Source of the DNA: a phage
Length of the DNA stretch: 64,000 bases
Reading direction: 5' to 3' (one strand)
Sequence record: PZ445436.1
Below, in pieces: positions 7,452-62,636 of the stretch. Every line of letters starts with the position of its first letter. The stretch's first letter is position 1. The notes beneath the pieces are model-generated. The model ran no database searches. It worked only from the letters and a program-made list of their open reading frames with translations, and was not told the DNA's origin. The position numbers and the translations under genes are program-made.

Positions 7452-8261
7452 ATGCTTAAAGAACAACTGATTGCCGAAGCGCAGAAAATTGATGCTTCCG
7501 TTGCTCTTGATAGTATTTTCGAATCAGTTAATATTTCTCCGGAAGCAAAAGAAACTTTCGGCACTGTATTCGAAGCTACCGTCAAGCAGCACGCCGTTAA
7601 ATTAGCTGAATCTCATATCGCTAAAATTGCTGAAAAAGCAGAAGAAGAAGTAGAAAAAAATAAAGAAGAAGCCGAAGAAAAAGCTGAGAAGAAAATCGCT
7701 GAGCAAGCTTCTAAATTCATTGACCATCTTGCGAAAGAATGGCTCGCTGAAAATAAATTAGCAGTTGATAAAGGCATCAAAGCCGAACTGTTTGAATCCA
7801 TGCTTGGTGGATTAAAAGAGCTCTTTGTTGAACACAACGTTGTTGTTCCAGAAGAATCGGTTGATGTTGTAGCTGAAATGGAAGAAGAGCTGCAAGAACA
7901 TAAAGAAGAATCAGCTCGTCTGTTCGAAGAACTCAATAAGCGTGACGCATATATCAATTATGTGCAGCGTGAAGTGGCATTGAGCGAAAGTACTAAAGAT
8001 CTGACTGAGTCTCAAAAAGAAAAAGTCTCTGCTCTGGTCGAAGGTATGGATTATTCAGATGCATTCTCAAGTAAATTGAGTGCAATCGTAGAAATGGTGA
8101 AGAAATCTAATAAAGATGAAAGCACTATTACTGAGAGTATAAATACTCCTGATACTGAAGCAGCCGGACTGAATTTCGTCACTGAAGCTGTAGAAGATAA
8201 AGCTGCACAGGGTGCAGAAGATATTGTAAGTGTATATGCGAAAGTCGCATCTCGTTTCTAA
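7452..8261 (+). CDS. 22: Prohead core scaffolding protein, T4 gp22-like
   Basis: 269-aa ORF, strongly acidic/helical, length as T4 gp22; TATAAATA upstream. Confidence 0.9.
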   Translation: MLKEQLIAEAQKIDASVALDSIFESVNISPEAKETFGTVFEATVKQHAVKLAESHIAKIAEKAEEEVEKNKEEAEEKAEKKIAEQASKFIDHLAKEWLAENKLAVDKGIKAELFESMLGGLKELFVEHNVVVPEESVDVVAEMEEELQEHKEESARLFEELNKRDAYINYVQREVALSESTKDLTESQKEKVSALVEGMDYSDAFSSKLSAIVEMVKKSNKDESTITESINTPDTEAAGLNFVTEAVEDKAAQGAEDIVSVYAKVASRF

Positions 8262-8279
8262 TTTTAAAGGTTAACACAA

Positions 8280-9845
8280 ATGACTATCAAAACTAAAGCT
8301 GAACTTTTGAACAAATGGAAGCCATTACTGGAAGGTGAAGGTTTACCGGAAATTGCTAATAGCAAACAAGCGATTATCGCTAAAATCTTTGAAAACCAGG
8401 AAAAAGATTTCCAGACAGCTCCAGAATATAAAGACGAAAAAATTGCTCAGGCATTTGGTTCTTTCTTAACAGAAGCTGAAATCGGTGGTGACCACGGTTA
8501 CAATGCTACCAACATCGCTGCAGGTCAGACTTCTGGCGCAGTAACTCAGATTGGCCCAGCTGTTATGGGTATGGTACGTCGTGCTATTCCTAACCTGATT
8601 GCTTTCGATATTTGTGGTGTTCAGCCGATGAACAGCCCAACCGGTCAGGTATTCGCACTCCGCGCGGTATATGGTAAAGATCCGATCGCTGCCGGTGCTA
8701 AAGAAGCATTCCACCCAATGTATGGTCCAGATGCAATGTTCTCTGGTCAGGGTGCTGCTAAGAAATTCCCAGCTCTGGCTGCTAGCACAGAAACCACAGT
8801 AGGTGATATCTATACTCACTTCTTCCAGGACACTGGTACTGTGTATCTGCAAGCTTCTGCTCAAGTAACAATTAGTGCAAGCGCAACTGATGCAGATAAA
8901 TTAGATGCTGAAATTAAGAAACAAATGGAAGCTGGTGCACTGGTAGAAATCGCTGAAGGTATGGCTACTTCTATCGCTGAACTCCAGGAAGGTTTCAACG
9001 GTTCTACCGATAACCCATGGAATGAAATGGGCTTCCGTATCGATAAACAAGTTATCGAAGCTAAATCTCGCCAGCTGAAAGCTGCTTACTCTATCGAATT
9101 AGCACAAGACCTCCGCGCTGTTCACGGTATGGATGCTGACGCTGAACTGTCTGGTATTCTGGCTACAGAAATTATGCTGGAAATCAACCGTGAAGTTGTT
9201 GATTGGATTAACTACTCAGCTCAGGTTGGTAAATCTGGTATGACTCTGACTCCGGGTTCTAAAGCTGGTGTATTTGACTTCCAGGACCCAATCGATATTC
9301 GTGGTGCTCGCTGGGCGGGTGAATCCTTTAAAGCTCTGTTGTTCCAGATTGACAAAGAAGCAGTTGAAATTGCTCGTCAAACCGGTCGCGGCGAAGGTAA
9401 CTTCATTATCGCTTCTCGTAACGTAGTTAACGTACTGGCTTCTGTTGATACTGGCATTTCTTATGCTGCTCAAGGTTTGGCAACCGGTTTTAATACTGAT
9501 ACTACTAAGTCAGTATTTGCAGGTGTTCTGGGTGGTAAATACCGTGTATATATCGACCAGTATGCTAAACAGGATTATTTCACTGTAGGTTATAAAGGTC
9601 CGAACGAAATGGATGCTGGTATTTACTATGCTCCATATGTAGCTCTGACTCCGCTGCGTGGTTCCGATCCGAAGAACTTCCAACCAGTAATGGGATTCAA
9701 AACTCGTTACGGTATCGGTATCAACCCATTTGCAGAATCCGCTGCTCAGGCTCCGGCTTCTCGCATTCAGAGTGGTATGCCTTCTATCCTGAACAGCCTT
9801 GGTAAGAACGCTTACTTCCGCCGTGTATATGTTAAAGGTATCTAA
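8280..9845 (+). CDS. 23: Major capsid protein, T4 gp23-like
   Basis: 521-aa ORF, length as T4 gp23; high codon bias; followed by strong terminator hairpin. Confidence 0.95.
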   Translation: MTIKTKAELLNKWKPLLEGEGLPEIANSKQAIIAKIFENQEKDFQTAPEYKDEKIAQAFGSFLTEAEIGGDHGYNATNIAAGQTSGAVTQIGPAVMGMVRRAIPNLIAFDICGVQPMNSPTGQVFALRAVYGKDPIAAGAKEAFHPMYGPDAMFSGQGAAKKFPALAASTETTVGDIYTHFFQDTGTVYLQASAQVTISASATDADKLDAEIKKQMEAGALVEIAEGMATSIAELQEGFNGSTDNPWNEMGFRIDKQVIEAKSRQLKAAYSIELAQDLRAVHGMDADAELSGILATEIMLEINREVVDWINYSAQVGKSGMTLTPGSKAGVFDFQDPIDIRGARWAGESFKALLFQIDKEAVEIARQTGRGEGNFIIASRNVVNVLASVDTGISYAAQGLATGFNTDTTKSVFAGVLGGKYRVYIDQYAKQDYFTVGYKGPNEMDAGIYYAPYVALTPLRGSDPKNFQPVMGFKTRYGIGINPFAESAAQAPASRIQSGMPSILNSLGKNAYFRRVYVKGI

Positions 9846-12825: not shown

Positions 12826-14244
12826 TTATGGATAGGTATAGATGATACCAGTTTCTAAAGCAGTTTTGTGAATGATGTATCCATTACGCGATTCTTGGAC
12901 ATCAACTTCTGGATAGTCTTTCATCATCTTCTGAAGCGTATAACGATGCAGGTAGTATTTACTATCTGGATCTTCAGTTTTCCAATCTTTACCTTCTTCA
13001 GTCATTTTTTGGATTTCATCCATAACCCACCAACCGCACCAGATGTAAGCTGAAGTACGATGTGGAAGAGGATGAACATAAGGTAATTCACCTTCTGGTT
13101 CTGGAGCAACTTTATCAGTCACTTGAACTTGACCTTCTGCTGTAATAGTTTTACTATCATAATCAGTTGCCGTAACGATAGCAGTAACTTCAATAGTTTG
13201 ACTTCCAACAGATGACGTATCAACGGTATACACATTAGTTGATCCTTCTACAGGAGAAGAATCTTTCTTCCATGAATAAGCAATTTGTGCTTCTTCTGGT
13301 GCATCAGTGACATTAGCAGTAAATGTGGCCGAAGCATCTTGCTGAACATTAATAGAAGGAGGAGTCAATGTAACCTGTGGATTCATTGTCTTCTTATTAA
13401 CTGTTAATGATACTTCATTCGAAGTAACTTCCTTTTCATTGTAATTTTCAGCAGTTACTTGGGCTACGCATTTAATTTTTTTTACTCCACTTGTAGTTGG
13501 AGTATAGCTAAATGTAGAGTTAGTTTCTCCACCAACTTGTGAATCATCTACATACCACTGATACGTAGCAGACGCTCCAACTGGTTGAGAAGCTAAGGCA
13601 GCAGTAAATTGAACTGGGGTTCCAATTACTCCAGCTGAAGGACTATCGGGAGTTACTGCCAAAGTAGTTGTCTGTGTCTTTTTATTAACAGTCAGTGACA
13701 CTTCATTAGAAGTAACGCTTAGTGCGTCATAATCTGTTGCGGTTACTTGAGCCACACACTTGATTTTTTTAACTCCGCTTGTGGTAGGAGTGTAATTGAA
13801 TGTAGCGCTAGTTGCTTCGTCCACAGGAGAATCATCTACATGCCACTGATATGTAGCATTTGCGCCCGATGGCTGCGAAGCTAAAGTAGCGGTAAATTCA
13901 ACAGCTGTTCCGATTACTCCTTCCGGAGGACTATTAGGAGTTACAGCTAAGGTAGTCGTTTGTGTCTTATTTTGAACTGTGATAGTTGTACTAATTTCAG
14001 CTGTTTCTGGACTACTATCGGCAACTTGATTTGTTGCAACTACTTTAATAGTCTTTTGACCGGCAGGTCCTTTTAATACATAACTAAAAGTTGCTTCAGC
14101 CCCATCTTGTGGAACATCATCTACAGTCCAAGCATATGTAATAGGTCCATCTCCAGTTTGACCACTGGGTGTAGCAGTAAACTGCTGAGTCTGATCTATA
14201 ACTCCAGTAGGTGTTTTAGGAGTTATATCAACTGTAAAAGCCAT
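12826..14244 (-). CDS. hoc: Highly immunogenic outer capsid protein Hoc, with four Ig-like domains
   Basis: 472-aa ORF; N-terminus MAFTVDITPKTPTGVID and C-terminal capsid-binding region as in T4 Hoc; contains a tandemly duplicated 96-aa Ig-like unit. Confidence 0.9.
   Translation of the reverse strand: MAFTVDITPKTPTGVIDQTQQFTATPSGQTGDGPITYAWTVDDVPQDGAEATFSYVLKGPAGQKTIKVVATNQVADSSPETAEISTTITVQNKTQTTTLAVTPNSPPEGVIGTAVEFTATLASQPSGANATYQWHVDDSPVDEATSATFNYTPTTSGVKKIKCVAQVTATDYDALSVTSNEVSLTVNKKTQTTTLAVTPDSPSAGVIGTPVQFTAALASQPVGASATYQWYVDDSQVGGETNSTFSYTPTTSGVKKIKCVAQVTAENYNEKEVTSNEVSLTVNKKTMNPQVTLTPPSINVQQDASATFTANVTDAPEEAQIAYSWKKDSSPVEGSTNVYTVDTSSVGSQTIEVTAIVTATDYDSKTITAEGQVQVTDKVAPEPEGELPYVHPLPHRTSAYIWCGWWVMDEIQKMTEEGKDWKTEDPDSKYYLHRYTLQKMMKDYPEVDVQESRNGYIIHKTALETGIIYTYP
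13393..13968 (-). repeat. In-frame tandem duplication (2 x 288 bp) encoding two Ig-like domains of Hoc
   Basis: Units 13393-13680 and 13681-13968 both encode KTQTTTLAVTP...SNEVSLTVNK, roughly three quarters identical at protein level. Confidence 0.85.
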
Positions 14245-14984: not shown

Positions 14985-16496
14985 ATGACTGACATTAAAG
15001 TACATTTTTATGATTTTAGTCACGTGAGAATTGATTGTGAAGAAAGTACATTTCATGAACTCCGTGATTTCTTTAGCTTTGAAGCTGATGGGTATCGTTT
15101 TAATCCGAAATACAAATATGGCCACTGGGATGGACGAATCCGTCTTTTAGATTATAATCGTCTTCTTCCATTCGGCTTAGTCGGGCAAATTAAAAAGTTC
15201 TGTGATAACTTTGGCTATAAAGCCTGGATTGACCCACAAATTAACGAAAAAGAAGAATTATCAAGAAAAGATTTTGATGAATGGCTTTCTAAATTAGAAA
15301 TCTATTCAGGAAATAAAAGAATTGAACCACACTGGTATCAAAAAGATGCAGTGTTCGAAGGATTAGTTAATCGTCGTAGAATTCTTAATCTTCCAACATC
15401 CGCTGGTAAATCTTTAATTCAAGCTTTGCTTGCGCGATATTATTTGGAAAATTATGAAGGTAAAATTCTTATCATTGTTCCAACAACTGCTCTGACAACT
15501 CAGATGGCTGATGACTTCGTTGACTATCGTTTATTCAGTCATGCAATGATAAAGAAAATTGGCGGCGGAGCATCAAAAGATGATAAATATAAAAATGATG
15601 CACCAGTCGTTGTTGGTACATGGCAAACTGTAGTAAAACAACCGAAAGAATGGTTCTCACAGTTTGGAATGATGATGAATGATGAATGTCATCTTGCTAC
15701 AGGAAAAAGTATTTCATCCATCATATCAGGTTTAAATAACTGCATGTTCAAATTCGGTTTGTCTGGTTCATTACGTGATGGCAAAGCTAATATCATGCAG
15801 TATGTTGGAATGTTTGGTGAAATATTTAAGCCAGTAACGACTTCTAAATTAATGGAAGATGGACAAGTAACTGAGCTAAAAATTAATAGTATTTTTCTTC
15901 GCTATCCCGATGAGTTCACTACTAAATTAAAGGGAAAAACTTATCAAGAAGAAATAAAAATTATTACTGGGCTTAGTAAAAGAAATAAATGGATCGCTAA
16001 ATTAGCTATTAAGCTTGCGCAAAAAGATGAAAACGCTTTTGTCATGTTTAAACATGTATCGCATGGTAAAGCTATTTTCGATTTAATTAAAAATGAATAC
16101 GATAAAGTTTATTACGTATCAGGGGAAGTTGATACCGAAACCCGCAATATAATGAAAACCTTAGCTGAAAATGGTAAAGGAATAATTATAGTAGCTAGTT
16201 ATGGTGTATTTTCTACTGGTATTTCAGTTAAAAATCTGCATCACGTTGTTTTAGCGCACGGTGTTAAATCAAAAATCATTGTATTACAAACAATCGGTCG
16301 TGTATTACGTAAGCATGGTTCTAAGACAATAGCAACAGTCTGGGACCTCATAGATGATTGTGGTGTTAAGCCAAAATCTGCTAATACGAAAAAGAAATAT
16401 GTTCATTTGAACTATCTTTTAAAACACGGCATTGATCGTATTCAGCGCTACGCAGATGAAAAATTTAATTACGTAATGAAAACAGTTAATTTATAA
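14985..16496 (+). CDS. uvsW: UvsW DNA/RNA helicase (SF2)
   Basis: 503-aa ORF; Walker A PTSAGKS and DECH box; late promoter upstream. Confidence 0.95.
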   Translation: MTDIKVHFYDFSHVRIDCEESTFHELRDFFSFEADGYRFNPKYKYGHWDGRIRLLDYNRLLPFGLVGQIKKFCDNFGYKAWIDPQINEKEELSRKDFDEWLSKLEIYSGNKRIEPHWYQKDAVFEGLVNRRRILNLPTSAGKSLIQALLARYYLENYEGKILIIVPTTALTTQMADDFVDYRLFSHAMIKKIGGGASKDDKYKNDAPVVVGTWQTVVKQPKEWFSQFGMMMNDECHLATGKSISSIISGLNNCMFKFGLSGSLRDGKANIMQYVGMFGEIFKPVTTSKLMEDGQVTELKINSIFLRYPDEFTTKLKGKTYQEEIKIITGLSKRNKWIAKLAIKLAQKDENAFVMFKHVSHGKAIFDLIKNEYDKVYYVSGEVDTETRNIMKTLAENGKGIIIVASYGVFSTGISVKNLHHVVLAHGVKSKIIVLQTIGRVLRKHGSKTIATVWDLIDDCGVKPKSANTKKKYVHLNYLLKHGIDRIQRYADEKFNYVMKTVNL

Positions 16497-20707: not shown

Positions 20708-21185
20708 AGAAGTTTCTATTCCTAAAATGGGTCTTAAACATTATAACATTTTAAAAGATGTTAAAGGTCCTGATGAAAATTTAAAACTTCTTATTGATTC
20801 TATTTGTCCGAATTTATCACCGGCAGAAGTTGATTTCGTTTCTATTCATTTATTGGAATTTAATGGAAAGATTAAATCTCGTAAAGAAATAGATGGCTAT
20901 ACTTATGACATTAATGATGTTTATGTATGCCAAAGATTAGAATTTCAATACCAAGGAAATACATTTTATTTTAGACCTCCTGGAAAATTTGAACAATTTT
21001 TAACGGTGAGCGATATGTTATCTAAATGCTTGCTTAAGGTTAACGATGAAGTTAAAGAAATTAATTTTCTTGAGATGCCAGCATTCGTTTTAAAATGGGC
21101 AAATGATATTTTTACAACTTTAGCAATTCCTGGCCCTAATGGTCCAATAACTGGAATTGGCAATATTATTGGATTATTTGAATGA
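20652..21185 (+). CDS. 28: Baseplate hub distal subunit, T4 gp28-like
   Basis: 177-aa ORF overlapping the 3' end of gene 27, as in T4. Confidence 0.85.
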
Positions 21186-25022: not shown

Positions 25023-25026
25023 CAAT

Positions 25027-25044
25027 GGGGACCGAAAGGTCCCC
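25027..25044. terminator. Bidirectional terminator between gene 54 (+) and the alt.-3-like ORF (-)
   Basis: GGGGACC-GAAA-GGUCCCC hairpin followed by T-rich tract. Confidence 0.75.
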
Positions 25045-25050
25045 ATATTT

Positions 25051-25341
25051 TTATTTACGGAATGAAATAAAAGCAGCAACTGAAGCAACTAAACTGTCTT
25101 CAATATAAACTTCAATTTTTACCGGAGCTTCTGACTCAAATTTACCTGTTACTACACCTTGGAAAATGCTTTCAGTCTGCTGTGGCTTTGAAAAATTTTC
25201 AGAAGGAAAAATTCCGAACTTTTTATCTGTTCCAAAAATTTTGATAAATTCATCGTAAACTGCTTCATTAAAAGCATTATCAGCAGGAATAACGCCTTCA
25301 ACTACAAGTTCTTGACCTAAAAAGCGCAAAGAAGATTTCAT
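25051..25341 (-). CDS. Hypothetical protein (T4 alt.-3-like position)
   Basis: 96-aa ORF immediately downstream of a T4-type early promoter. Confidence 0.6.
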   Translation of the reverse strand: MKSSLRFLGQELVVEGVIPADNAFNEAVYDEFIKIFGTDKKFGIFPSENFSKPQQTESIFQGVVTGKFESEAPVKIEVYIEDSLVASVAAFISFRK

Positions 25342-25347
25342 TTTGTG

Positions 25348-25402
25348 TTCCTCATGTTATGCCAGTAAGACTACTATAACACAACACGAGGGACTTGTAA
25401 AC
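25348..25402 (-). repeat. 55-bp promoter cassette, copy 1 (near-identical copy at 41198-41252)
   Basis: tcctcatgttatgCcagtaagactactataacacaacacgagggacttgtaaac; one mismatch to copy 2. Confidence 0.9.
25373..25402 (-). promoter_or_regulatory. T4-type early promoter upstream of the alt.-3-like ORF
   Basis: Minus strand GTTTAC-N18-TATAGT with TGT immediately before the -10 (extended -10). Confidence 0.6.
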
Positions 25403-27459
25403 TACATTTTGAACTTTTTAGACATTCCGTTGATGTTAACCAAAGAAGCCAAGATTTGAGAAACTTCGTTTTCCTCTTCTTTTGATTCTTCTACAAGGAA
25501 TTGATTAAATCCAGCCATTGGACGAACTTCACCAGTTTCCATTAGATGGTCGCCATCATATACCGATTCCTCTAATTGTTCAGAAGGAGGAACGATTGTA
25601 CCTTCTATTAGATACTTGTTATAAGCAGTTTCTTTCATAAAGTACGTGCTCACTTTATTAATCTTCAGTAAAATTCCACGCGGTAGAATAACTTCAGCTT
25701 CTGATGGAAATCCTGATAAATGACCTGGAACGATAACTTTGATTCGCTCAGCTCCTTTAATTACCATACCCACGCTAGTTTCAGCATCTTCATTAGCATA
25801 TGTAGAATGACTACCCATATGCATCAAATCTTCTGCATCAACGGAACCTTCTCCTTCGCCAGAAAATACTGCGCCGGAATCATCTAGAGCCATATAGTTT
25901 TTACCGTGCTCACCGAAAATATTTGGTTTAAGCGATGTGGATACGAAGTTCTTGAAATAGAACATTTTGTTTTCAATATTATGACGCAAAGTTTTAAAGG
26001 TAACTTCTTGTCCACGGTAAAGTGTAGTTCCTGGAGGAAGAACTGAACCTTTAGCGAATGCAGAATCAAGCGTCTCAATATGTTTAATAGCTCGTTCCAT
26101 ATATTCTTCACGGGTAGAATCTGGTTTACCCAAAAGGAACGAGTTCATTTCAACATATGAATCTGCACAATAATCTTCAATTACATCAGATTCAGCTTGA
26201 GTTAATCCTTTTGGAGTTACTTCGGTGCTTGCGTATTCATATGCCTGAGCGGCAGATTCATTAATCAATTTATAAATGCCATTCATTACAAATTGAATAA
26301 TAGCTGTCTTTTCATCTGGCGTAGCTTTAGAACCTTTAACCAAATCATTGATAATTTTCTTAATAACATCAAAGCTATTAGAAATATTAATGTCAGCAAG
26401 ATCGCTTAAAATTTTATCAGTTTTATAATCAAAGAATTCTTTATTCTTTAAATATTCTTGAGAACCTTGATATGCTATATCGCTCTGCAACTTGATAGAT
26501 GGATCACGTAAACGTGCATGGGCTAATGCAATATGATTTCGGAAGTTTTCTAGTTCGTAATCGCTAGATTTAAAACGAGAAGCACTTCTCATACCACCAA
26601 TAGCTCCTTTGCTGAAGTTTGAACCAATCTGAATAACGCCAGAGTTCATTGGTCCTTCTGCTTTATACACCGGAACTTTAGATTCAAACTCTTGATATTT
26701 CTTAGCAGCGAAGCTATCACCCTGAAGTGAAGCATCGACAGTAGAATATTGAGCTTGTGCTGCTAATCGACGACTAATTTTAGTTTTCTGAATAACAGCT
26801 TGATCAGTGCGCTTATCATTTTCTAAAGCAATAGAAGCAGCAACAGCGACAGCTTTAGGAACAGCATTACCTGTTTTAACGTCTACATAAACATCACCAA
26901 CCTTTGATTCAACTTTTGTGAATAACTCAGTTGAAATAGGAGGTACACCTGGAATGTCTTCTAAATTGGCATTTTTACGGTAAACCATAATATATGCATA
27001 TTTCTTATCATAGTCCCAGATTTCCTTTAAAAGAACATATCGACCTGCTCCTTTAGTACGTACTAAACGGTCAGCAATAACTTGCATTTGACGAGCAGCG
27101 CCATTTGTTTTACTCTTTAGTACGCGGAATAGGCATGCGTCGATTTTATACTGTTTCATTGTTTGAAGAGCAGTATCAAAAACGGCATTAATGACGCCAA
27201 TTGGATTTCCACCCAAGTTTCTAAGCTTGACTAACGATAATTTCTCGTTGACACCTATCATTACGATATGCATCATTTTGTCGCCTGGCTTAACGTTTTT
27301 ATTCGTATCACCGCCAGAGGTGTATGTACAAAATCTAAATCCAGGAAGAACGCTTTCTTCACCGGCTTGAATAGCAAAAATTTGTGGTATTTTATGCTTA
27401 GGATTTAAGTTAACAACCGGCGCCGAAGCGCCGTCAAATAATTCTGTAATAAGTTCCAT
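25402..27459 (-). CDS. Alt-type ADP-ribosyltransferase paralog (685 aa)
   Basis: N-terminus MELITELFD shared with the upstream Alt; C-terminal ART signature YRGQ / FVSTS / EAEVILPRG (R-S-ExE); ATG 3 nt after the upstream stop with AAGGA SD. Confidence 0.85.
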   Translation of the reverse strand: MELITELFDGASAPVVNLNPKHKIPQIFAIQAGEESVLPGFRFCTYTSGGDTNKNVKPGDKMMHIVMIGVNEKLSLVKLRNLGGNPIGVINAVFDTALQTMKQYKIDACLFRVLKSKTNGAARQMQVIADRLVRTKGAGRYVLLKEIWDYDKKYAYIMVYRKNANLEDIPGVPPISTELFTKVESKVGDVYVDVKTGNAVPKAVAVAASIALENDKRTDQAVIQKTKISRRLAAQAQYSTVDASLQGDSFAAKKYQEFESKVPVYKAEGPMNSGVIQIGSNFSKGAIGGMRSASRFKSSDYELENFRNHIALAHARLRDPSIKLQSDIAYQGSQEYLKNKEFFDYKTDKILSDLADINISNSFDVIKKIINDLVKGSKATPDEKTAIIQFVMNGIYKLINESAAQAYEYASTEVTPKGLTQAESDVIEDYCADSYVEMNSFLLGKPDSTREEYMERAIKHIETLDSAFAKGSVLPPGTTLYRGQEVTFKTLRHNIENKMFYFKNFVSTSLKPNIFGEHGKNYMALDDSGAVFSGEGEGSVDAEDLMHMGSHSTYANEDAETSVGMVIKGAERIKVIVPGHLSGFPSEAEVILPRGILLKINKVSTYFMKETAYNKYLIEGTIVPPSEQLEESVYDGDHLMETGEVRPMAGFNQFLVEESKEEENEVSQILASLVNINGMSKKFKM

Positions 27460-27462
27460 GAT

Positions 27463-29559
27463 TTATCCTTGAACGAACTTGTAAGGCATGTTTGTAATAT
27501 CTATGCAAGACGCAATAATTCCAAGAGATGATTCTACTTTCTGTTTAACGTTTGATGAAACAAATGATGCAAAGTCAACTCTGTCTTCTATTTCAATATC
27601 ACCTGTCATTGCAACCAATTCACCAGTTTCCATTAAATGGTCTCCATCATAGATTACCGATTCGGTGAGCTCTTCCGTGGTCATAACTTCAGCTTGAATG
27701 AGTTTTGTATTATTAGATGTTGTTCCGTCATTATTAGAAGCATCAGTTATTTTATTAACTTTGACCATCAATCCACGCGGTAGAATAACTTCAGCTTCTG
27801 TTGCTATTCCGAGACTTCCTGGATATACAACATTAACTTTATGTGCGCCGTCAATTGCCCATCCTATTTGAACTTTAACGTATTCAGGATTTTCTTTATA
27901 CGCTCTTATTTCGTTTGGATTAATAGTTATTCCTTCTTCATTTTTATCAACTGTCAATTCATTACGAGCTTCTGGTTCTAAAAGACCAATACCAGCATGT
28001 GTAATTCCAAAACGCCCAAAAATGATAGGAGTTAAAGAAGTAGATACAAAATTTCTGAAATAGAACACTTTATTTTTAACTAGCGCTTCGTATATAGGAG
28101 CAGTCATACTTTGAGCACGATAAACTGTAATGCCTTCCGGTATGCGGTCACCATTTTCAAAAGCTGAATCTAAATTATTTATAGCAGATTCAATTTCTTT
28201 TTCACTCATTACATCATATCGTTCTGGATTGTAACGACCTAAAAGAAGATTATTGATGTCAGTATATCCTGAACCACAATACTCTCTAATGCCGCGCTTT
28301 TGTGATGGAGTATATTTAGAACCATCACGGGCAATAGTAATATCAATCATTGGACCTGCACCAATTCCAGAAAAACTATAAATCATTCTTTTGAGGAATT
28401 TAGTTTTTGCTGCGTTCCAGGAATTTTTAGTCATTTCTTCCCAGACTTCATCTGGCTGCCCTTTACGAGTTTTATTATGTTTATCAAGCCAATTATCTTT
28501 ATATTCTTCAAAGAATTTATTAACAGCTGCTGCGTATTTCTCTAAACATTTTATTGAAGTAGTTGGCTCATTTTTTATCGCGTTAAAAATTACATCTTTA
28601 ATTTTTTCGGAAACTTCATCAACCTCACTTTTTGAAAAGAATTTATAGTCATAATGAAGTTCATTCGCAGTTCCTTCGGCAATAATTTTTGCTGCCTTAG
28701 TTTTAGAAGCTAATGAATTAATTCCAAGCTTCATTTCTTCTGCTTCGGGAATTAAAGGAGCGGTAGCAGGTTTATTAAAATTAGCTGCTGTAGATTCATA
28801 CTTCTGGAATAATTCACTTTCAAATCTAGAAGATTCCAATGATTGACTTTGCGCAATTGCTCTACGGGAAATTTTAACTTTAACGATTACAGCTTGGTCA
28901 GAACGTTTATCATTTTCTTGTGCAATAGATGCTGCAATTGCCTCATTTTTAGTTACTTGAGCTCCAGTATCTTTATTGATATAAACATCACCGACCTTCG
29001 ATTCAACTTTAGTAAAGAGCTCGGTACTAATTTCCGGAACCCCTGGAATGTCTTCTAGTGATACATTTTTGCGATGTATAAGAATATATGCATACTTTTT
29101 ATCGTAATCCCAGAGTTCCTTAAGAAGGACGTATCTGCCACCTGAACGACTACGGATAAGTCTATCAGCAATAACTTGAATTTGTCGAGCTTGACCAGCG
29201 GTTTTAGACTTAAGAATACGGAGCATACAGGCATCAATTTTATACTGACGCATTGTTTGTATTGCAACAGTAAAAACTGAATTGATATAATTAATTGGGC
29301 TTGGACCGAGACCTTTTAATTTAGCAATTGAACCTTTGGCAGTTAATGTAAAAGGAACGATATGCATCATTTTATCGCCCATTTTTAAATCGCGATTAGT
29401 ATCACCTCCAGATGTATAGGTACATAAACGAAAGCCTGGTTGTTCAATTGCATCATCAACATGAACTGAAAAAATTTGTGGTATTTTCTTCTTTGGGTTT
29501 AAGTTTGTAATCGGAAGAGTAGTATCTTCGTCAAATAATTCTGTAATGAGTTCCATCAT
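27463..29559 (-). CDS. alt: Alt ADP-ribosyltransferase (698 aa)
   Basis: N-terminus MMELITELFD; ART signature YRAQ / FVSTS / EAEVILPRG; minus-strand TATAAATA 21 nt upstream. Confidence 0.85.
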   Translation of the reverse strand: MMELITELFDEDTTLPITNLNPKKKIPQIFSVHVDDAIEQPGFRLCTYTSGGDTNRDLKMGDKMMHIVPFTLTAKGSIAKLKGLGPSPINYINSVFTVAIQTMRQYKIDACMLRILKSKTAGQARQIQVIADRLIRSRSGGRYVLLKELWDYDKKYAYILIHRKNVSLEDIPGVPEISTELFTKVESKVGDVYINKDTGAQVTKNEAIAASIAQENDKRSDQAVIVKVKISRRAIAQSQSLESSRFESELFQKYESTAANFNKPATAPLIPEAEEMKLGINSLASKTKAAKIIAEGTANELHYDYKFFSKSEVDEVSEKIKDVIFNAIKNEPTTSIKCLEKYAAAVNKFFEEYKDNWLDKHNKTRKGQPDEVWEEMTKNSWNAAKTKFLKRMIYSFSGIGAGPMIDITIARDGSKYTPSQKRGIREYCGSGYTDINNLLLGRYNPERYDVMSEKEIESAINNLDSAFENGDRIPEGITVYRAQSMTAPIYEALVKNKVFYFRNFVSTSLTPIIFGRFGITHAGIGLLEPEARNELTVDKNEEGITINPNEIRAYKENPEYVKVQIGWAIDGAHKVNVVYPGSLGIATEAEVILPRGLMVKVNKITDASNNDGTTSNNTKLIQAEVMTTEELTESVIYDGDHLMETGELVAMTGDIEIEDRVDFASFVSSNVKQKVESSLGIIASCIDITNMPYKFVQG

Positions 29560-40347: not shown

Positions 40348-40697
40348 TTAGAAAGGTCCTGGATGTCTTCTGCGAACTTGTTGAAGGAGTTGTTGATTTG
40401 TTTTTCAACCAATCCTGGCTTATGAGCCACCACATCCGCCTTCTTTGCGTCTTTGCGCAGTTTTTCATTTTCACGCTCAATAGCAGCAATTGCCTCACGA
40501 TTTTTATTATTCATCGCATCAATATAATTATACTGAATTCGCAAATTATTTAATGCTAAGGCGTTTTCATTGGCTGTTTTTGTAATTTCAGTAACTGATG
40601 TTTCTAATCTTTCTACCTTATTTTTTAAAATAATAGATGTTCCGCCAAATGCTATTACAAGTAATAGCAATCCAGCTGTAAAATTACTTACATGCAT
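40344..40697 (-). CDS. Inner-membrane spanin (i-spanin)
   Basis: 117-aa ORF with N-terminal transmembrane helix then charged coiled-coil; directly upstream of o-spanin. Confidence 0.65.
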   Translation of the reverse strand: MHVSNFTAGLLLLVIAFGGTSIILKNKVERLETSVTEITKTANENALALNNLRIQYNYIDAMNNKNREAIAAIERENEKLRKDAKKADVVAHKPGLVEKQINNSFNKFAEDIQDLSK

Positions 40698-41194
40698 AAA
40701 GTTTTAATAACCTCTATAATATCGTCTTGAGAAAGACCGTTAATTAAAATATGATGTTCAGCTGGAGATTTAGAAATTTTAAAGCATGCCTCAACATCTT
40801 CTGCCATATCCGATGCACTACGATTTGGATTACTAATACCAAGGCGGTGTTTTCCCGTCAAAGGATTAACGATGATATAGCATTTGCAGCTATTGATATG
40901 AACATTTGGTTGAGTCTGATTAATGAACACTTCACAATCATACTTAGCGAGTTGATTTTCTAAAAAGACTTTCATCTCTTCAACCGCATCAGGAAGCATA
41001 TCACGGGCTTGCTCAAGACGACGATTTCGATATTCTTTAATGGTCGTTTTCCGCTTGACTTGCTTAGCTAAATCTTTCTTAAGATCAGTGATATATCCAA
41101 CTCGACGATTTCCTTTGAATACAGAAATCCCATCTGTAGTATCACCGTATGCTTCAACGACCATTTCAGTAGTAATAAGCTGCAAATCCATCAT
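40688..41194 (-). CDS. alc: Alc, inhibitor of host transcription
   Basis: 168-aa ORF, length and position as T4 alc; early promoter upstream. Confidence 0.8.
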   Translation of the reverse strand: MMDLQLITTEMVVEAYGDTTDGISVFKGNRRVGYITDLKKDLAKQVKRKTTIKEYRNRRLEQARDMLPDAVEEMKVFLENQLAKYDCEVFINQTQPNVHINSCKCYIIVNPLTGKHRLGISNPNRSASDMAEDVEACFKISKSPAEHHILINGLSQDDIIEVIKTLCM

Positions 41195-41197
41195 AAA

Positions 41198-41252
41198 GTC
41201 CTCATGTTATGTCAGTAAGACTACTATAACACAACACGAGGGACTTGTAAAC
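41198..41252 (-). repeat. 55-bp promoter cassette, copy 2
   Basis: tcctcatgttatgTcagtaagactactataacacaacacgagggacttgtaaac. Confidence 0.9.
41223..41252 (-). promoter_or_regulatory. T4-type early promoter upstream of alc
   Basis: Identical core to the 25373-25402 promoter. Confidence 0.6.
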
Positions 41253-41255
41253 AGC

Positions 41256-42843
<1,588 letters not shown>

Positions 42844-53633: not shown

Positions 53634-56600
53634 ATGGCCGAGATTAAAAGAAAGTTCAGAGCAGAAGATGGTCTGGACGCAGGTGGTGATAAAATAATCA
53701 ACGTAGCTTTAGCTGATCGTGCCGTAGGAACTGACGGTGTTAACGTTGATTACTTAATTCAAGAAAACACAGTTCAACAATATGATCCAACTCGTGGATA
53801 TTTAAAAGATTTTGTAATCATTTATGATAACCGCTTTTGGGCTGCTATAAATGATATTCCAAAACCGGCAGGAGCTTTTAATAGCGGACGCTGGAGAGCA
53901 TTACGTACCGATGCTAACTGGATTACGGTTTCATCTGGTTCATATCAATTAAAATCTGGTGAAGCTATTTCGGTTAACACCGCAGCTGGTAATGATATTA
54001 CATTTACTTTACCATCTACCCCAATTGACGGTGATACTATCGTTCTCCAAGATATTGGAGGAAAACCTGGAGTTAACCAAGTTTTAATTGTAGCTCCGGT
54101 GCAAAGTATTGTAAACTTCAGAGGTCAACAGGTACGTTCAGTACTAATGACTCATCCAAAGTCACAGCTAGTTTTAATTTTTAGTAATCGTCTGTGGCAA
54201 ATGTATGTTGCTGATTATAGTAGAGAAGCTATAGTTGTAACACCAGCAAGTCTCTATCAGGCGCAATCTAATGATTTTATCGTACGTAGATTTACTTCTG
54301 CTGCACCAATTAATGTTAAACTTCCAAGATTTGCTAATCATGGCGATATTATTAATTTCGTTGATTTAGATAAACTGAATCCACTTTATCATACAATTGT
54401 TACTACATACGATGAAACGACTTCAGTACAAGAAGTTGGAACTCATTCCATTGAAGGCCGTACATCAATTGACGGTTTCTTGATGTTTGATGATAATGAG
54501 AAATTGTGGAGATTGTTTGACGGGGATAGTAAAGCACGTTTACGCATTATAACGACTAATTCTAATATTCGTCCAAACGAAGAAGTCATGGTATTTGGTG
54601 CGAATAACGGAACAACTCAAACAATTGAACTTCAGCTTCCAACTAATATTTCTGTTGGTGATACTGTTAAAATTTCCATGAATTACATGAGAAAAGGACA
54701 AACAGTTAAAATCAAAGCTGCCGGTGAAGATAAAATTGCTTCTTCAGTTCAATTGCTGCAATTCCCAAAACGTTCAGAATATCCACCTGAAACTAAATGG
54801 GTGACTGTTCAAGAATTAGTTTTTAACGGTGAAACTAATTATGTTCCAGTTTTGCAACTTGCTTACATAGAAGATTCTGATGGAAAATATTGGGTTGTGC
54901 AACAAAATGTTCCAACTGTAGAAAGAGTCGATTCTTTAAATGATTCTACTAGAGCAAGATTAGGCGTAATTGCTTTAGCTACACAAGCTCAAGCTAATGT
55001 CGATTTAGAAAATTCTCCACAAAAAGAATTAGCAATTACTCCAGAAACATTAGCTAACCGTACTGCTACTGAAACTCGCAGAGGTATTGCAAGAATAGCA
55101 ACTACTGCTCAAGTGAATCAGAACACCACATTCTCTTTTGCTGATGATATTATCATCACTCCTAAAAAGCTGAATGAAAGAACTGCTACAGAAACTCGCA
55201 GAGGTGTCGCAGAAATTGCTACGCAGCAAGAAACTAATGCAGGAACCGATGACACTACAATCATCACTCCTAAAAAGCTTCAAGCTCGTCAAGGTTCTGA
55301 ATCATTATCTGGTATTGTAACTTTTGTATCTACTGCAGGTGCTACTCCAGCTTCTAGCCGTGAATTAAATGGTACGAATGTTTATAATAAAAACACTAAT
55401 AATTTAGTTGTTTCGCCAAAAGCTTTGGATCAGTATAAAGCTACGCCTACTCAACAGGGTGCAGTAATTTTAGCCGTTGAAAGTGAAGTAATTGCTGGAC
55501 AAAGCCAAGAAGGATGGGCAAATGCTGTTGTAACGCCAGAAACGTTACACAAAAAGACATCAACTGATGCAAGAATTGGTTTAATTGAAATTGCTACGCA
55601 AAGTGAAGTTAATACAGGAACTGATTATACTCGTGCAGTCACTCCTAAAACTTTAAATGACCGTAGAGCAACTGAAAGTTTAAGTGGTATAGCTGAAATT
55701 GCTACGCAAGTTGAATTCGACGCAGGCGTCGACGATACTCGTATCTCTACACCATTAAAAATTAAAACCAGATTTAATAGTACTGATCGTACTTCTGTTG
55801 TTGCTCTATCTGGATTAGTTGAATCAGGAACTCTCTGGGACCATTATACCCTTAATATTCTTGAAGCAAATGAGACACAGCGTGGTACACTTCGTGTAGC
55901 TACACAGGTTGAAGCTGCTGCAGGAACATTAGATAATGTTTTAATAACTCCTAAAAAGCTTTTAGGTACTAAATCTACTGAAGCACAGGAAGGTGTTATT
56001 AAAGTTGCAACTCAAGCTGAAACCGTAGCTGGAACATCAGCAAATACTGCTGTATCTCCAAAAAATTTAAAATGGATTGTCCAGTCTGAACCAACATGGG
56101 CTGCTACTACGGCGATTCGTGGATTCGTTAAAACTTCATCCGGTTCTATTACATTTGTTGGTAATGATACAGTTGGTTCAACACAACCTTTAGAATCATA
56201 TGAGAAAAATAGCTATGCAGTATCACCATATGAATTAAACCGTGTACTTGCTAACTATTTGCCATTGAAAGCTAAAGCCGTAGATAGTAATTTATTAGAT
56301 GGCCTAGATTCATCTCAGTTCATTCGTAGGGACATTGCACAGACGGTTAATGGTTCACTAACCTTAACACAACAAACGAATCTGAGTGCCCCTCTCGTAT
56401 CATCTAGTACTGCTACGTTTGGTGGTTCAGTTTCGGCAAATAGTACATTAACTATTTCTAATACTGGAACGGCAACTCGTCTGATTTTTGAGAAAGGACC
56501 TCAAACTGGAACTAACCCAGCGCAGACGATGACTATTAGAGTTTGGGGAAATCAGTTTGGTGGTGGATCAGATACAACACGTTCTACTGTATTTGAAGTT

Positions 56601-62300: not shown

Positions 62301-62636
62301 CCCAATAACATATTCTATGACGGATATAATAGTGTAGGTGCAAACGCCAACGCTAAATTCACTGGAACCGTGAACGGTGCTACTGCATGGTCGAATATAG
62401 CCAAAACTTCTTCAGACGGTGCTCATACTCATACTTGGTCTGGTACTACAAGCACTACAGGTAACCATGCTCACACAGTAGGTATTGGTGCTCATACCCA
62501 TACTGTAGGTATCGGTGCTCATACCCACACGGTAGCAATTGGCTCGCATGGTCATACTATCACTGTAAATAGTACAGGTAATACAGAAAACACGGTTAAA
62601 AACATTGCTTTTAACTATATCGTTCGTTTAGCATAA
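59364..62636 (+). CDS. 37: Long tail fibre distal subunit (receptor-binding), T4 gp37-like
   Basis: 1090-aa ORF; C-terminal His-x-His repeats and terminal [11 protein letters not shown]. Confidence 0.9.
62127..62213 (+). repeat. In-frame 30-nt tandem repeat in gp37 tip ([10 protein letters not shown] x2 plus partial)
   Basis: GGTACTAAAACTACATCAAGCTTTGATTAT / GGCACTAAGACGACAAGTAGCTTTGACTAT / GGCACTAAGACT... Confidence 0.8.
62478..62558 (+). repeat. In-frame 27-nt tandem repeat in gp37 (VGIGAHTHT x2, VAIGSHGHT)
   Basis: Three consecutive 27-nt units each encoding a His-x-His motif. Confidence 0.8.

Follow-up and report, generated by a model that had tools for sequence, protein, structure and literature searches.

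Two copies of an early-promoter cassette

The 64,000-nucleotide stretch of phage DNA analyzed here (sequence record PZ445436.1, referred to below as the window) is a Tequatrovirus sequence, whose local region is 99% identical to that of phages Kelasse and FelixPlatter. It carries two near-identical copies of a short cassette, both read on the minus strand: copy A lies between the stop codon of an Alt paralog and the gene alt.-3, and copy B lies between rnlA and alc. Phage T4 has the same cassette pair at its alt.-2/alt.-3 and rnlA/alc junctions, and the alc copy of the window is identical to that of T4. We consider it probable that each copy is a single unit of early promoter, leader and Shine-Dalgarno (SD) sequence, that the unit folds into a hairpin which would hide the SD in read-through RNA, and that it was copied from alc to alt.-3. 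The genes and cassette elements at the two loci are as follows.

25051 to 25341, minus strand: alt.-3 homologue of 96 amino acids, DUF5498 (Pfam PF17602, E 5e-64)
25349 to 25402, minus strand: cassette copy A (alt.-3 locus), GTTTACAAGTCCCTCGTGTTGTGTTATAGTAGTCTTACTGGCATAACATGAGGA
25349 to 25353, minus strand: SD sequence GAGGA of alt.-3, in the 3' arm of the predicted hairpin; start ATG at 25341-25339
25373 to 25381, minus strand: extended -10 element of copy A, TGT + TATAGT (promoter scan)
25396 to 25401, minus strand: -35 hexamer of copy A, TTTACA (promoter scan)
25402 to 27459, minus strand: second full-length Alt-like ADP-ribosyltransferase (Kelasse annotation)
40688 to 41194, minus strand: alc, inhibitor of host transcription (Pfam ALC, E 2.5e-92)
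41199 to 41252, minus strand: cassette copy B (alc locus), with A for G at cassette position 41 and otherwise as copy A
41199 to 41203, minus strand: SD sequence GAGGA of alc (from the sequence)
41223 to 41231, minus strand: extended -10 element of copy B, TGT + TATAGT (promoter scan)
41246 to 41251, minus strand: -35 hexamer of copy B, TTTACA (promoter scan)
41256 to 42416, minus strand: rnlA (RNA ligase 1), upstream of copy B, with its stop codon 3 nt before the cassette

Repeat finding and a DNA search gave two copies of 54 nt in the same orientation, with a spacing of 15,850 bp and a single mismatch (on the plus strand, C at 25362 versus T at 41212). No match arose in 100 dinucleotide shuffles, and the repeat is real and not due to chance. 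When up to three mismatches were allowed, the window held these two places only, and a covariance model built from the cassette scored copy A at 83.6 bits and copy B at 86.8 bits, with no third copy in the window and the next matches at or below 20 bits. Population counts were taken from the GenBank phage collection, which was chosen over IMG/VR given that an exact-pattern scan of the latter returned 6 loci only. Amongst 499-507 related complete GenBank records there were 997-1005 matching places, equivalent to two per genome across the whole genus, with no third.

On the minus strand, which is the functional one, the cassette reads GTTTACA / AGTCCCTCGTGTTGTGT / TATAGT / AGTCTTACTG[G/A]CATAACAT / GAGGA, and the repeat extends exactly from the G of GTTTACA to the final A of GAGGA. 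The promoter scan returned TTTACA-17-TATAGT at both sites with 10 of 12 matches and with TGT directly before TATAGT. A stop codon, TAG or TAA, lies 0-3 nt 5' of GTTTAC; at copy A the G at 25402 before the -35 hexamer is at the same time the last base of the TAG stop of the Alt paralog. At the 3' edge GAGGA is followed by ATG, 7 nt further at alt.-3 and 4-7 nt further at alc, where two ATG codons are found (41194-41192 and 41191-41189) and the second is the start as annotated in T4. The sequences upstream of the promoters (AAAAAGTTCAAAATGTA for copy A and AATTATAAAAAATTTATCCCAGAAGGATACTAAGCT for copy B) are both A/T-rich and lie inside coding sequence.

Part of the original prediction, made from the letters alone, was borne out by these results. 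It had described a repeat of 55 bp with one mismatch, of which the mismatch stands and the length is corrected to 54 nt (25348 is T and 41198 is G); it had placed the copies 15.8 kb apart in the same orientation, upstream of an alt.-3-like open reading frame (ORF) and of alc, as is confirmed by the spacing and by the DUF5498 and alc genes on the minus strand. Its proposal that both copies contain the early-promoter core holds at each site, TG included. As a description of a promoter cassette it was right that an early promoter is present twice, and it missed the strand (the functional sequence is the reverse complement of the one that it quoted), the hairpin and the exact -35 and SD ends. Further copies, the search for which it had suggested, were found neither in the window nor in about 500 relatives.

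In the record of Yersinia phage fPS-65, each of the two sites is annotated as a predicted early promoter. For T4, both the RNA and the protein of alc and of alt.-3 are classed as early, whereas alt is classed as late, alt.-1 and alt.-2 as middle, and rnlA as early by its RNA and late by its protein (supplement of PMC9697503). The early timing of alc and alt.-3, with upstream neighbors of different timing, fits an early promoter of their own at each site. Each copy is well supported as a T4-type immediate-early cassette, made up of a sigma-70 promoter, a leader of about 17 nt and an SD sequence. The DksA paper and the 2014 text on promoter(early) stem-loop (PeSL) elements do not mention alc or alt.-3.

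As a separate observation on the leaders, the AUG of the leader motif CAUGAGGA opens a mini-ORF of 4-5 codons at both loci (25339-25356 and 41192-41206, minus strand), the UGA of which overlaps the AUG of the gene (AUGA). No separate SD serves the mini-ORF, and the arrangement is absent from JS98.

A predicted hairpin that pairs the promoter with the SD

Folding of the cassette RNA gave one helix of 18-19 bp with a free energy (dG) of -22 kcal/mol and a z-score of -5.4 to -5.6; none of 200 shuffled sequences was as stable. The promoter spacer CCCTCGTGTTGTGT together with TATAG is predicted to pair with the leader and the SD (CTG.CATAACATGAGG) around the loop GTCT, which gives the following two features.

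25349 to 25391, minus strand: predicted RNA hairpin of copy A, 3' arm CTGGCATAACATGAGG, loop GTCT; dG -22 kcal/mol, z -5.6
41197 to 41245, minus strand: predicted RNA hairpin of copy B with its local flank (AGTCC/GGACT); dG -22 to -23 kcal/mol, z -5.4 to -5.8

The -10 box and the predicted start site fall in the upper stem and loop, or near the loop. In cassette positions, the 5' arm spans 11-31, the -10 box 25-30, and the predicted start lies near 37, in the 3' half. In 211-nt read-through contexts of both copies the hairpin was kept in the minimum free energy (MFE) and centroid structures, and the SD bases GAGG are predicted to be paired in both kinds of structure in the 54-nt as well as the 211-nt folds. 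Leaders that begin after the -10 box folded without significant structure. Owing to G-U pairs, of which the T4-type copies contain four, the sense RNA (-22 kcal/mol) has roughly double the stability of the antisense RNA (-10 to -13 kcal/mol, and -10.4 for copy A); the corresponding DNA fold is weak, at -9 kcal/mol. Variants within Tequatrovirus were mostly compatible with the helix, including G16A, C15T, T27C, A41G, G40A, C11T and one C15T+G50A double change.

The Rfam search placed no family at the cassette, and the terminator scan found none at either copy. A U-tract after the hairpin was absent at both loci and in the sequences of other genera that were inspected, which speaks against a canonical intrinsic terminator. 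The only terminator that the scan returned is at 25025-25046, between the convergent genes 54 and alt.-3, where a 9-bp GC-rich hairpin has T-runs on both strands; it is likely a bidirectional terminator, and is so annotated in fPS-65.

The predicted hairpin at alc across T4-like genera

The alc upstream regions sampled came from Dhakavirus, Mosigvirus, Gaprivervirus, Karamvirus, Moonvirus, Gelderlandvirus, Jiaodavirus, Kagamiyamavirus, Kanagawavirus, Marfavirus and others, and the gene order around both copies (alt/alt.-3/54 and rnlA/alc) is conserved across genera. Of 34 distinct sequences upstream of alc, about 25 were predicted to form a hairpin spanning the promoter, with z-scores of -3.6 to -7.6, and the 3' arm of this hairpin contains the SD in about 22 of them. 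Taken together with annotated records, the hairpin-bearing alc sequences represent at least 10 genera. The arms vary by lineage yet stay complementary, as in CCCTCGTG/CATGAGG, CTCCATTTGG/CCAAATGGAG and CCTCGTCAG/CTGATGAGG. In a covariance-model-fitted alignment of 28 distinct sequences, a procedure that is itself biased towards structure, 90.8% of cells pair compared with 66.9% in column shuffles, and double changes occur at 18 of 19 pairs; none of 500 shuffles reached these values, and slid controls gave 33-58%. From this comparison, the placement of the promoter inside a hairpin appears to be ancestral at alc across many T4-like genera.

In RB69-like phages and two other lineages (L050, L065 and L067 are listed), the alc promoter has the short spacer hairpin that is typical of alt.-3, and in RB69 the two leaders (21015-21080 and 8252-8310) share ATCAACAACA[T/C]GAGGA; the RB69-type alc promoter could be the outcome of a cassette swap in the opposite direction. 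In Gaprivervirus phages (VR26 14996-15229; also L037, L038 and L066), a partial alc duplicate is located upstream of alc, and the promoter of this duplicate carries a GGGG...CCCC stem over its -35 box (GTGTACA), like the PeSLs of RB49 type.

Probable transfer of the cassette from alc to alt.-3

An early promoter directly follows the alt stop codon in Dhakavirus, Gaprivervirus, Mosigvirus, Marfavirus, Kanagawavirus, Gelderlandvirus and Kagamiyamavirus. At alt.-3 these seven genera have only a spacer stem of 5-6 bp (CCACA-AGGA-TGTGG type, z above -3), and the long helix from spacer to SD was found at alt.-3 in none of them. In Tequatrovirus the flanks of the alt.-3 promoter are orthologous to those of the other genera (...TTCAAAATGTAG upstream and ...AAAATGAAATCT downstream), and the stretch between them is of the alc type. 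The identity of the pair is 98%, compared with 65-74% between the alt.-3 and alc cassettes within JS98, RB69 and VR26.

Altogether, the sequences indicate that the alc cassette most likely overwrote the alt.-3 promoter in an ancestor of Tequatrovirus. The copy event is well supported. Its direction and mechanism are read more indirectly, the direction from alc to alt.-3 being suggested because the long hairpin is found in other genera at alc and not at alt.-3. The transfer may have been a short ectopic conversion, the tract of which would end in motifs common to both promoters, GTTTACA(A) and CATGAGGA. The exchange of promoter cassettes that the original prediction had suspected is therefore supported on two grounds: early promoters are present at both loci everywhere and are near-identical only in Tequatrovirus, and the long hairpin is ancestral at alc and not at alt.-3. 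The event provides a clean and datable case in which a whole promoter/leader/ribosome-binding site (RBS) unit replaced another between conserved genes, and this overwriting supports the movement of regulatory cassettes, beyond ORFs alone, in T4-like genomes.

A related question is whether the near-identity of the copies is upheld by continuing ectopic gene conversion and not by a single old copying event that purifying selection has since preserved. We regard the former as possible but on the unlikely side, based on a comparison of 13 genomes or contigs, a small sample without a phylogeny. The copies are 100% identical in two of the 13 (Kelasse and one IMG/VR contig), and three of the four variable alc positions also vary at alt.-3. 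Phage vB_ECOLIGBLB0003 (GBLB0003; L015 203 and 15329) has A16 and C27 in both copies, and elsewhere among the 13 A16 occurs at alt.-3 only and C27 at alc only; these shared alleles are possible evidence of conversion between the copies. Against continuing conversion, most variants are specific to one locus (T11-T15-A16, A12-A32 and A29-A32 at alt.-3; C27 and A33 at alc), six of the 13 have copies that differ from each other at 3-5 positions, and conservation is somewhat stronger for the alc copy than for the alt.-3 copy. Non-crossover conversion between the copies may nevertheless continue. The alt.-3 copy of GBLB0003 is also the one that carries the compensatory C15T+G50A pair.

Proposed mode of action and its main rival

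Under the account favored here, copy A would drive alt.-3 and copy B would drive alc. The transcripts of these promoters would start about 7 nt after the -10 box, inside the hairpin, and would consequently hold the 3' arm only and leave the SD free, while read-through RNA arriving from the Alt paralog or from rnlA, denA and nrd would carry both arms and have its SD buried. The late expression of alt in T4 (supplement of PMC9697503) indicates a possible source of read-through RNA into alt.-3. Only immediate-early, promoter-proximal transcripts would then expose the RBS, and middle or late read-through would keep alc and alt.-3 closed. We infer this translational gating from the modeled folds. 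If it is true, it would explain how Alc, a protein that acts on RNA polymerase, stays immediate-early despite read-through from nrd, denA and rnlA. The most extended version of the account, a portable 'immediate-early only' switch that is conserved at alc in at least 10 genera, was transplanted to alt.-3 by microhomology-bounded conversion and is perhaps still being converted, is put forward tentatively, and we would rather bet against all of its parts holding at once.

Several observations weigh against the joint account of SD-hiding hairpin and alc-to-alt.-3 copy. Regarding the fold, the gating is a prediction from folding, and the pair count across genera comes from the structure-biased alignment noted above. 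When 22 alc promoters from different genera were aligned with MAFFT and passed to RNAalifold, no consensus structure emerged, because the 3' arms were out of register; this approach was replaced by per-sequence folds with shuffles, a tabulation anchored at the -35 element, and a covariance-model alignment with shuffle and slide controls. Within Tequatrovirus the covariation was not significant (74 of 500 shuffles reached the observed value for 13 haplotypes), and the variants C12A, G29A, G16T and G40T break pairs. Regarding distribution, the long alc hairpin is absent from RB69-like phages, PM2, MP1, Ac42, L065/L067 and VR26, and in L045, L063 and L052 the alc stem ends 2-5 nt before the SD. 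Lineages without the long stem, or with a stem that falls short of the SD, imply that SD occlusion is neither universal nor indispensable. Additionally, the other stems of the window that span a -10 box exclude the SD, so that the role of the stem may be non-translational. For the promoters themselves, a search for published 5'-end data, including a T4 transcription-start-site dataset, found none for these two. As for the donor, T4 is 76-78% identical to JS98 alc and 73% identical to JS98 alt.-3, a difference that favors alc only weakly.

The main rival explanation accepts the hairpin and gives it a different function, namely that of a transcriptional insulator, attenuator or 3'-end stabilizer, as in the published view of PeSLs, with the pairing of the SD being incidental. 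The SD-free stems of the other early promoters in the window and the three alc hairpins that end just before the SD speak for this explanation, as does the finding that the PeSL stem-loops of RB49 and phi1 cut downstream lacZ expression like a strong terminator. It is opposed by the lack of a U-tract after the hairpin at either locus or in other genera, and by the coincidence of the 3' arm with the SD in most hairpin-bearing alc sequences despite their differing arm sequences. We judge the rival to be unlikely, although it is to be taken seriously.

Relation to known systems

The cassette belongs to known kinds of element, these being T4 early promoters, PeSL cassettes and, by mechanism, promoters in hairpins; it is present in T4 and is largely ordinary. 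With T4 early promoters (reviewed by Hinton 2010, PMC2988021) it shares the -35 sequence GTTTAC(A), the 17-nt spacer, TGn and TATAGT, as well as a position directly after an upstream stop codon and before an early gene. The two copies differ from that family in a mutual identity that goes far beyond the family consensus and takes in spacer and leader.

PeSL cassettes (Arbiol et al. 2010, PMC2839356; Comeau et al. 2014, PMC4122927) likewise join the stop codon of the preceding gene to an early promoter whose -10 box is overlapped by a stem-loop, with an SD and a start codon at the 3' end. The cassette fits the T4/PST promoter consensus TTTACW-N17-TAYWAT (PMC4122927), the top of its stem (AGTA-GTCT-TACT) resembles the reported 'AGNA-loop-TCNT', and exchange at conserved promoter and SD motifs has already been proposed in print (PMC2839356, PMC4122927). 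Similar copies that mark an exchange, which is a feature of PeSLs, are found here as well, and the type of the alt.-3 promoter differs between Tequatrovirus and the seven other genera. The differences are as follows. At 18-19 bp the stem of the cassette is much longer, and the SD itself makes up its 3' arm. The role published for PeSLs is that of a terminator or attenuator, and the cassette here is without a U-tract. In the published cases ORFs were swapped between cassettes in a hyperplastic region, whereas here the cassette itself moved between conserved genes. The usual hyperplastic location by variable ORFs does not apply to the present pair, although the published description allows for a minority of such cases.

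Two other early promoters of the window, at 37946-37893 and 33973-33920 on the minus strand, have stem-loop arms flanking the -10 box (GGTAGAGC.../...GCTCTACC and GGTACAGG.../...CCTGTACC, with z-scores of -3.9 and -4.8) and an SD outside the stem, which looks like the general PeSL architecture.

Hairpins that sequester the SD and contain an internal promoter are an established mechanism for T4 e, soc, 49 and I-TevI (PMC3014915). The cassette resembles this class in that the SD is predicted to be paired in transcripts from upstream, and transcripts from the internal promoter, given the start site deduced here, would lack the 5' arm. The internal promoter of that class is a late one (TATAAATA) and translation is delayed, whereas the cassette has a sigma-70 early promoter and no TATAAATA. 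The cassette would thus act like the e/soc/49/I-TevI class without being a standard member of it, with the mirror-image logic of 'early only'. That review (PMC3014915) does not include alc or alt.-3 in its list of cases, and our literature search turned up no publication that connects alc to a stem-loop or an RBS. A description of the alc promoter in a hairpin, conserved with covariation in many genera, was not found in the literature examined.

Recombination, DNA-level and promoter-family explanations

The original prediction had also proposed that recombination between the copies would delete or duplicate the region from alt to alc, and had suggested a comparison with relatives for rearrangements bounded by the cassette. 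The recombination proposal was not supported. The two predicted junctions (rnlA-cassette-alt.-3 and alt-cassette-alc) had no contiguous match in any of 499 phage records, each of which shows the two parental places. The interval holds DNA ligase (gene 30), gp31 (gene 31), cd, pseT, rIII and other genes. Both gene 30 and gene 31 are essential for T4, whose headful redundancy is roughly 3%, which a 15.85-kb duplication would exceed. Given the essential genes and the headful limit, both crossover products should be inviable.

That the repeat is chiefly a substrate for homologous recombination, deleting or duplicating the alt-to-alc block, is accordingly improbable. A length of about 54 bp is reportedly near the minimum for T4 recombination, a figure attributed to Singer et al. 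1982, and this would speak for such a role. In RB49 and phi1, recombination between nearby PeSLs and the mini-circles that it yields have been demonstrated (PMC2839356). The missing recombinant junctions, and the presence of ligase, gp31, cd and pseT inside the interval, speak against it. The T4 interval, at 13.2 kb, is shorter than that of the window through indels elsewhere, including an internal deletion in the Alt paralog, and this length difference is not bounded by the cassette, which further disfavors the recombination explanation. When the DNA between them is essential, long exact repeats of a phage genome are not necessarily hot spots of rearrangement.

An action of the inverted repeat as DNA, either as a cruciform or as a site around the -10 box to which a dimeric protein binds, is very improbable. 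Arms that are symmetric about the -10 box occur in many early promoters, as this explanation would have it, but the arms covary freely between genera without conservation of their sequence, and the four G-U pairs favor the sense RNA (-22 kcal/mol) over both the antisense RNA (-10 to -13 kcal/mol) and the DNA fold (-9 kcal/mol).

The remaining explanation, that the copies are alike as members of an ordinary many-site family sharing a long extended consensus of T4 early promoters, can be dismissed. GTTTAC, TGn and TAnnAT are indeed common to all early promoters and the leader motif CATGAGGA recurs in alt.-3 leaders of other genera, but the other good early promoters of the window (53588, 37946 and 33973, minus strand) share only 54-66% identity with the cassette when compared in the same register, no more than two places match with up to three mismatches or score strongly with the covariance model, each of about 500 genomes has two places, and the same loci are only 65-74% alike in JS98, RB69 and VR26. 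The original prediction had named this outcome, a consensus present at dozens of sites, as the one that would reduce the cassette to an ordinary promoter, and the copy counts and identities refute it. T4 early promoters have reportedly been compiled (Liebig & Rüger 1989; Wilkens & Rüger 1994).

Neighboring genes and other repeats in the window

The Alt paralog upstream of copy A is one of two tandem full-length Alt-like ADP-ribosyltransferase genes on the minus strand, at 25402-27459 and about 27463-29556, which share nucleotide repeats of 72-82% identity at a spacing of about 2.1 kb. In T4 only the alt.-1/alt.-2 remnants of the second paralog are left (L002 3566-3951). These remnants still terminate with the codons of the full-length gene (KKFKM*), a sign that the T4 Alt paralog has undergone an internal deletion.

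Three further genes of the window contain repeats inside their coding sequence. The hoc homologue, with Ig-like domains, contains a 251-nt internal repeat at a spacing of 288 nt (region 13442-13980), and the gp34 homologue of 1289 amino acids contains several internal repeats of 29-68 nt (region 55035-55960). The gp37 homologue, of 1090 amino acids, has three tandem 27-nt units near its C-terminus that encode HxHTVGIGA (62466-62546).

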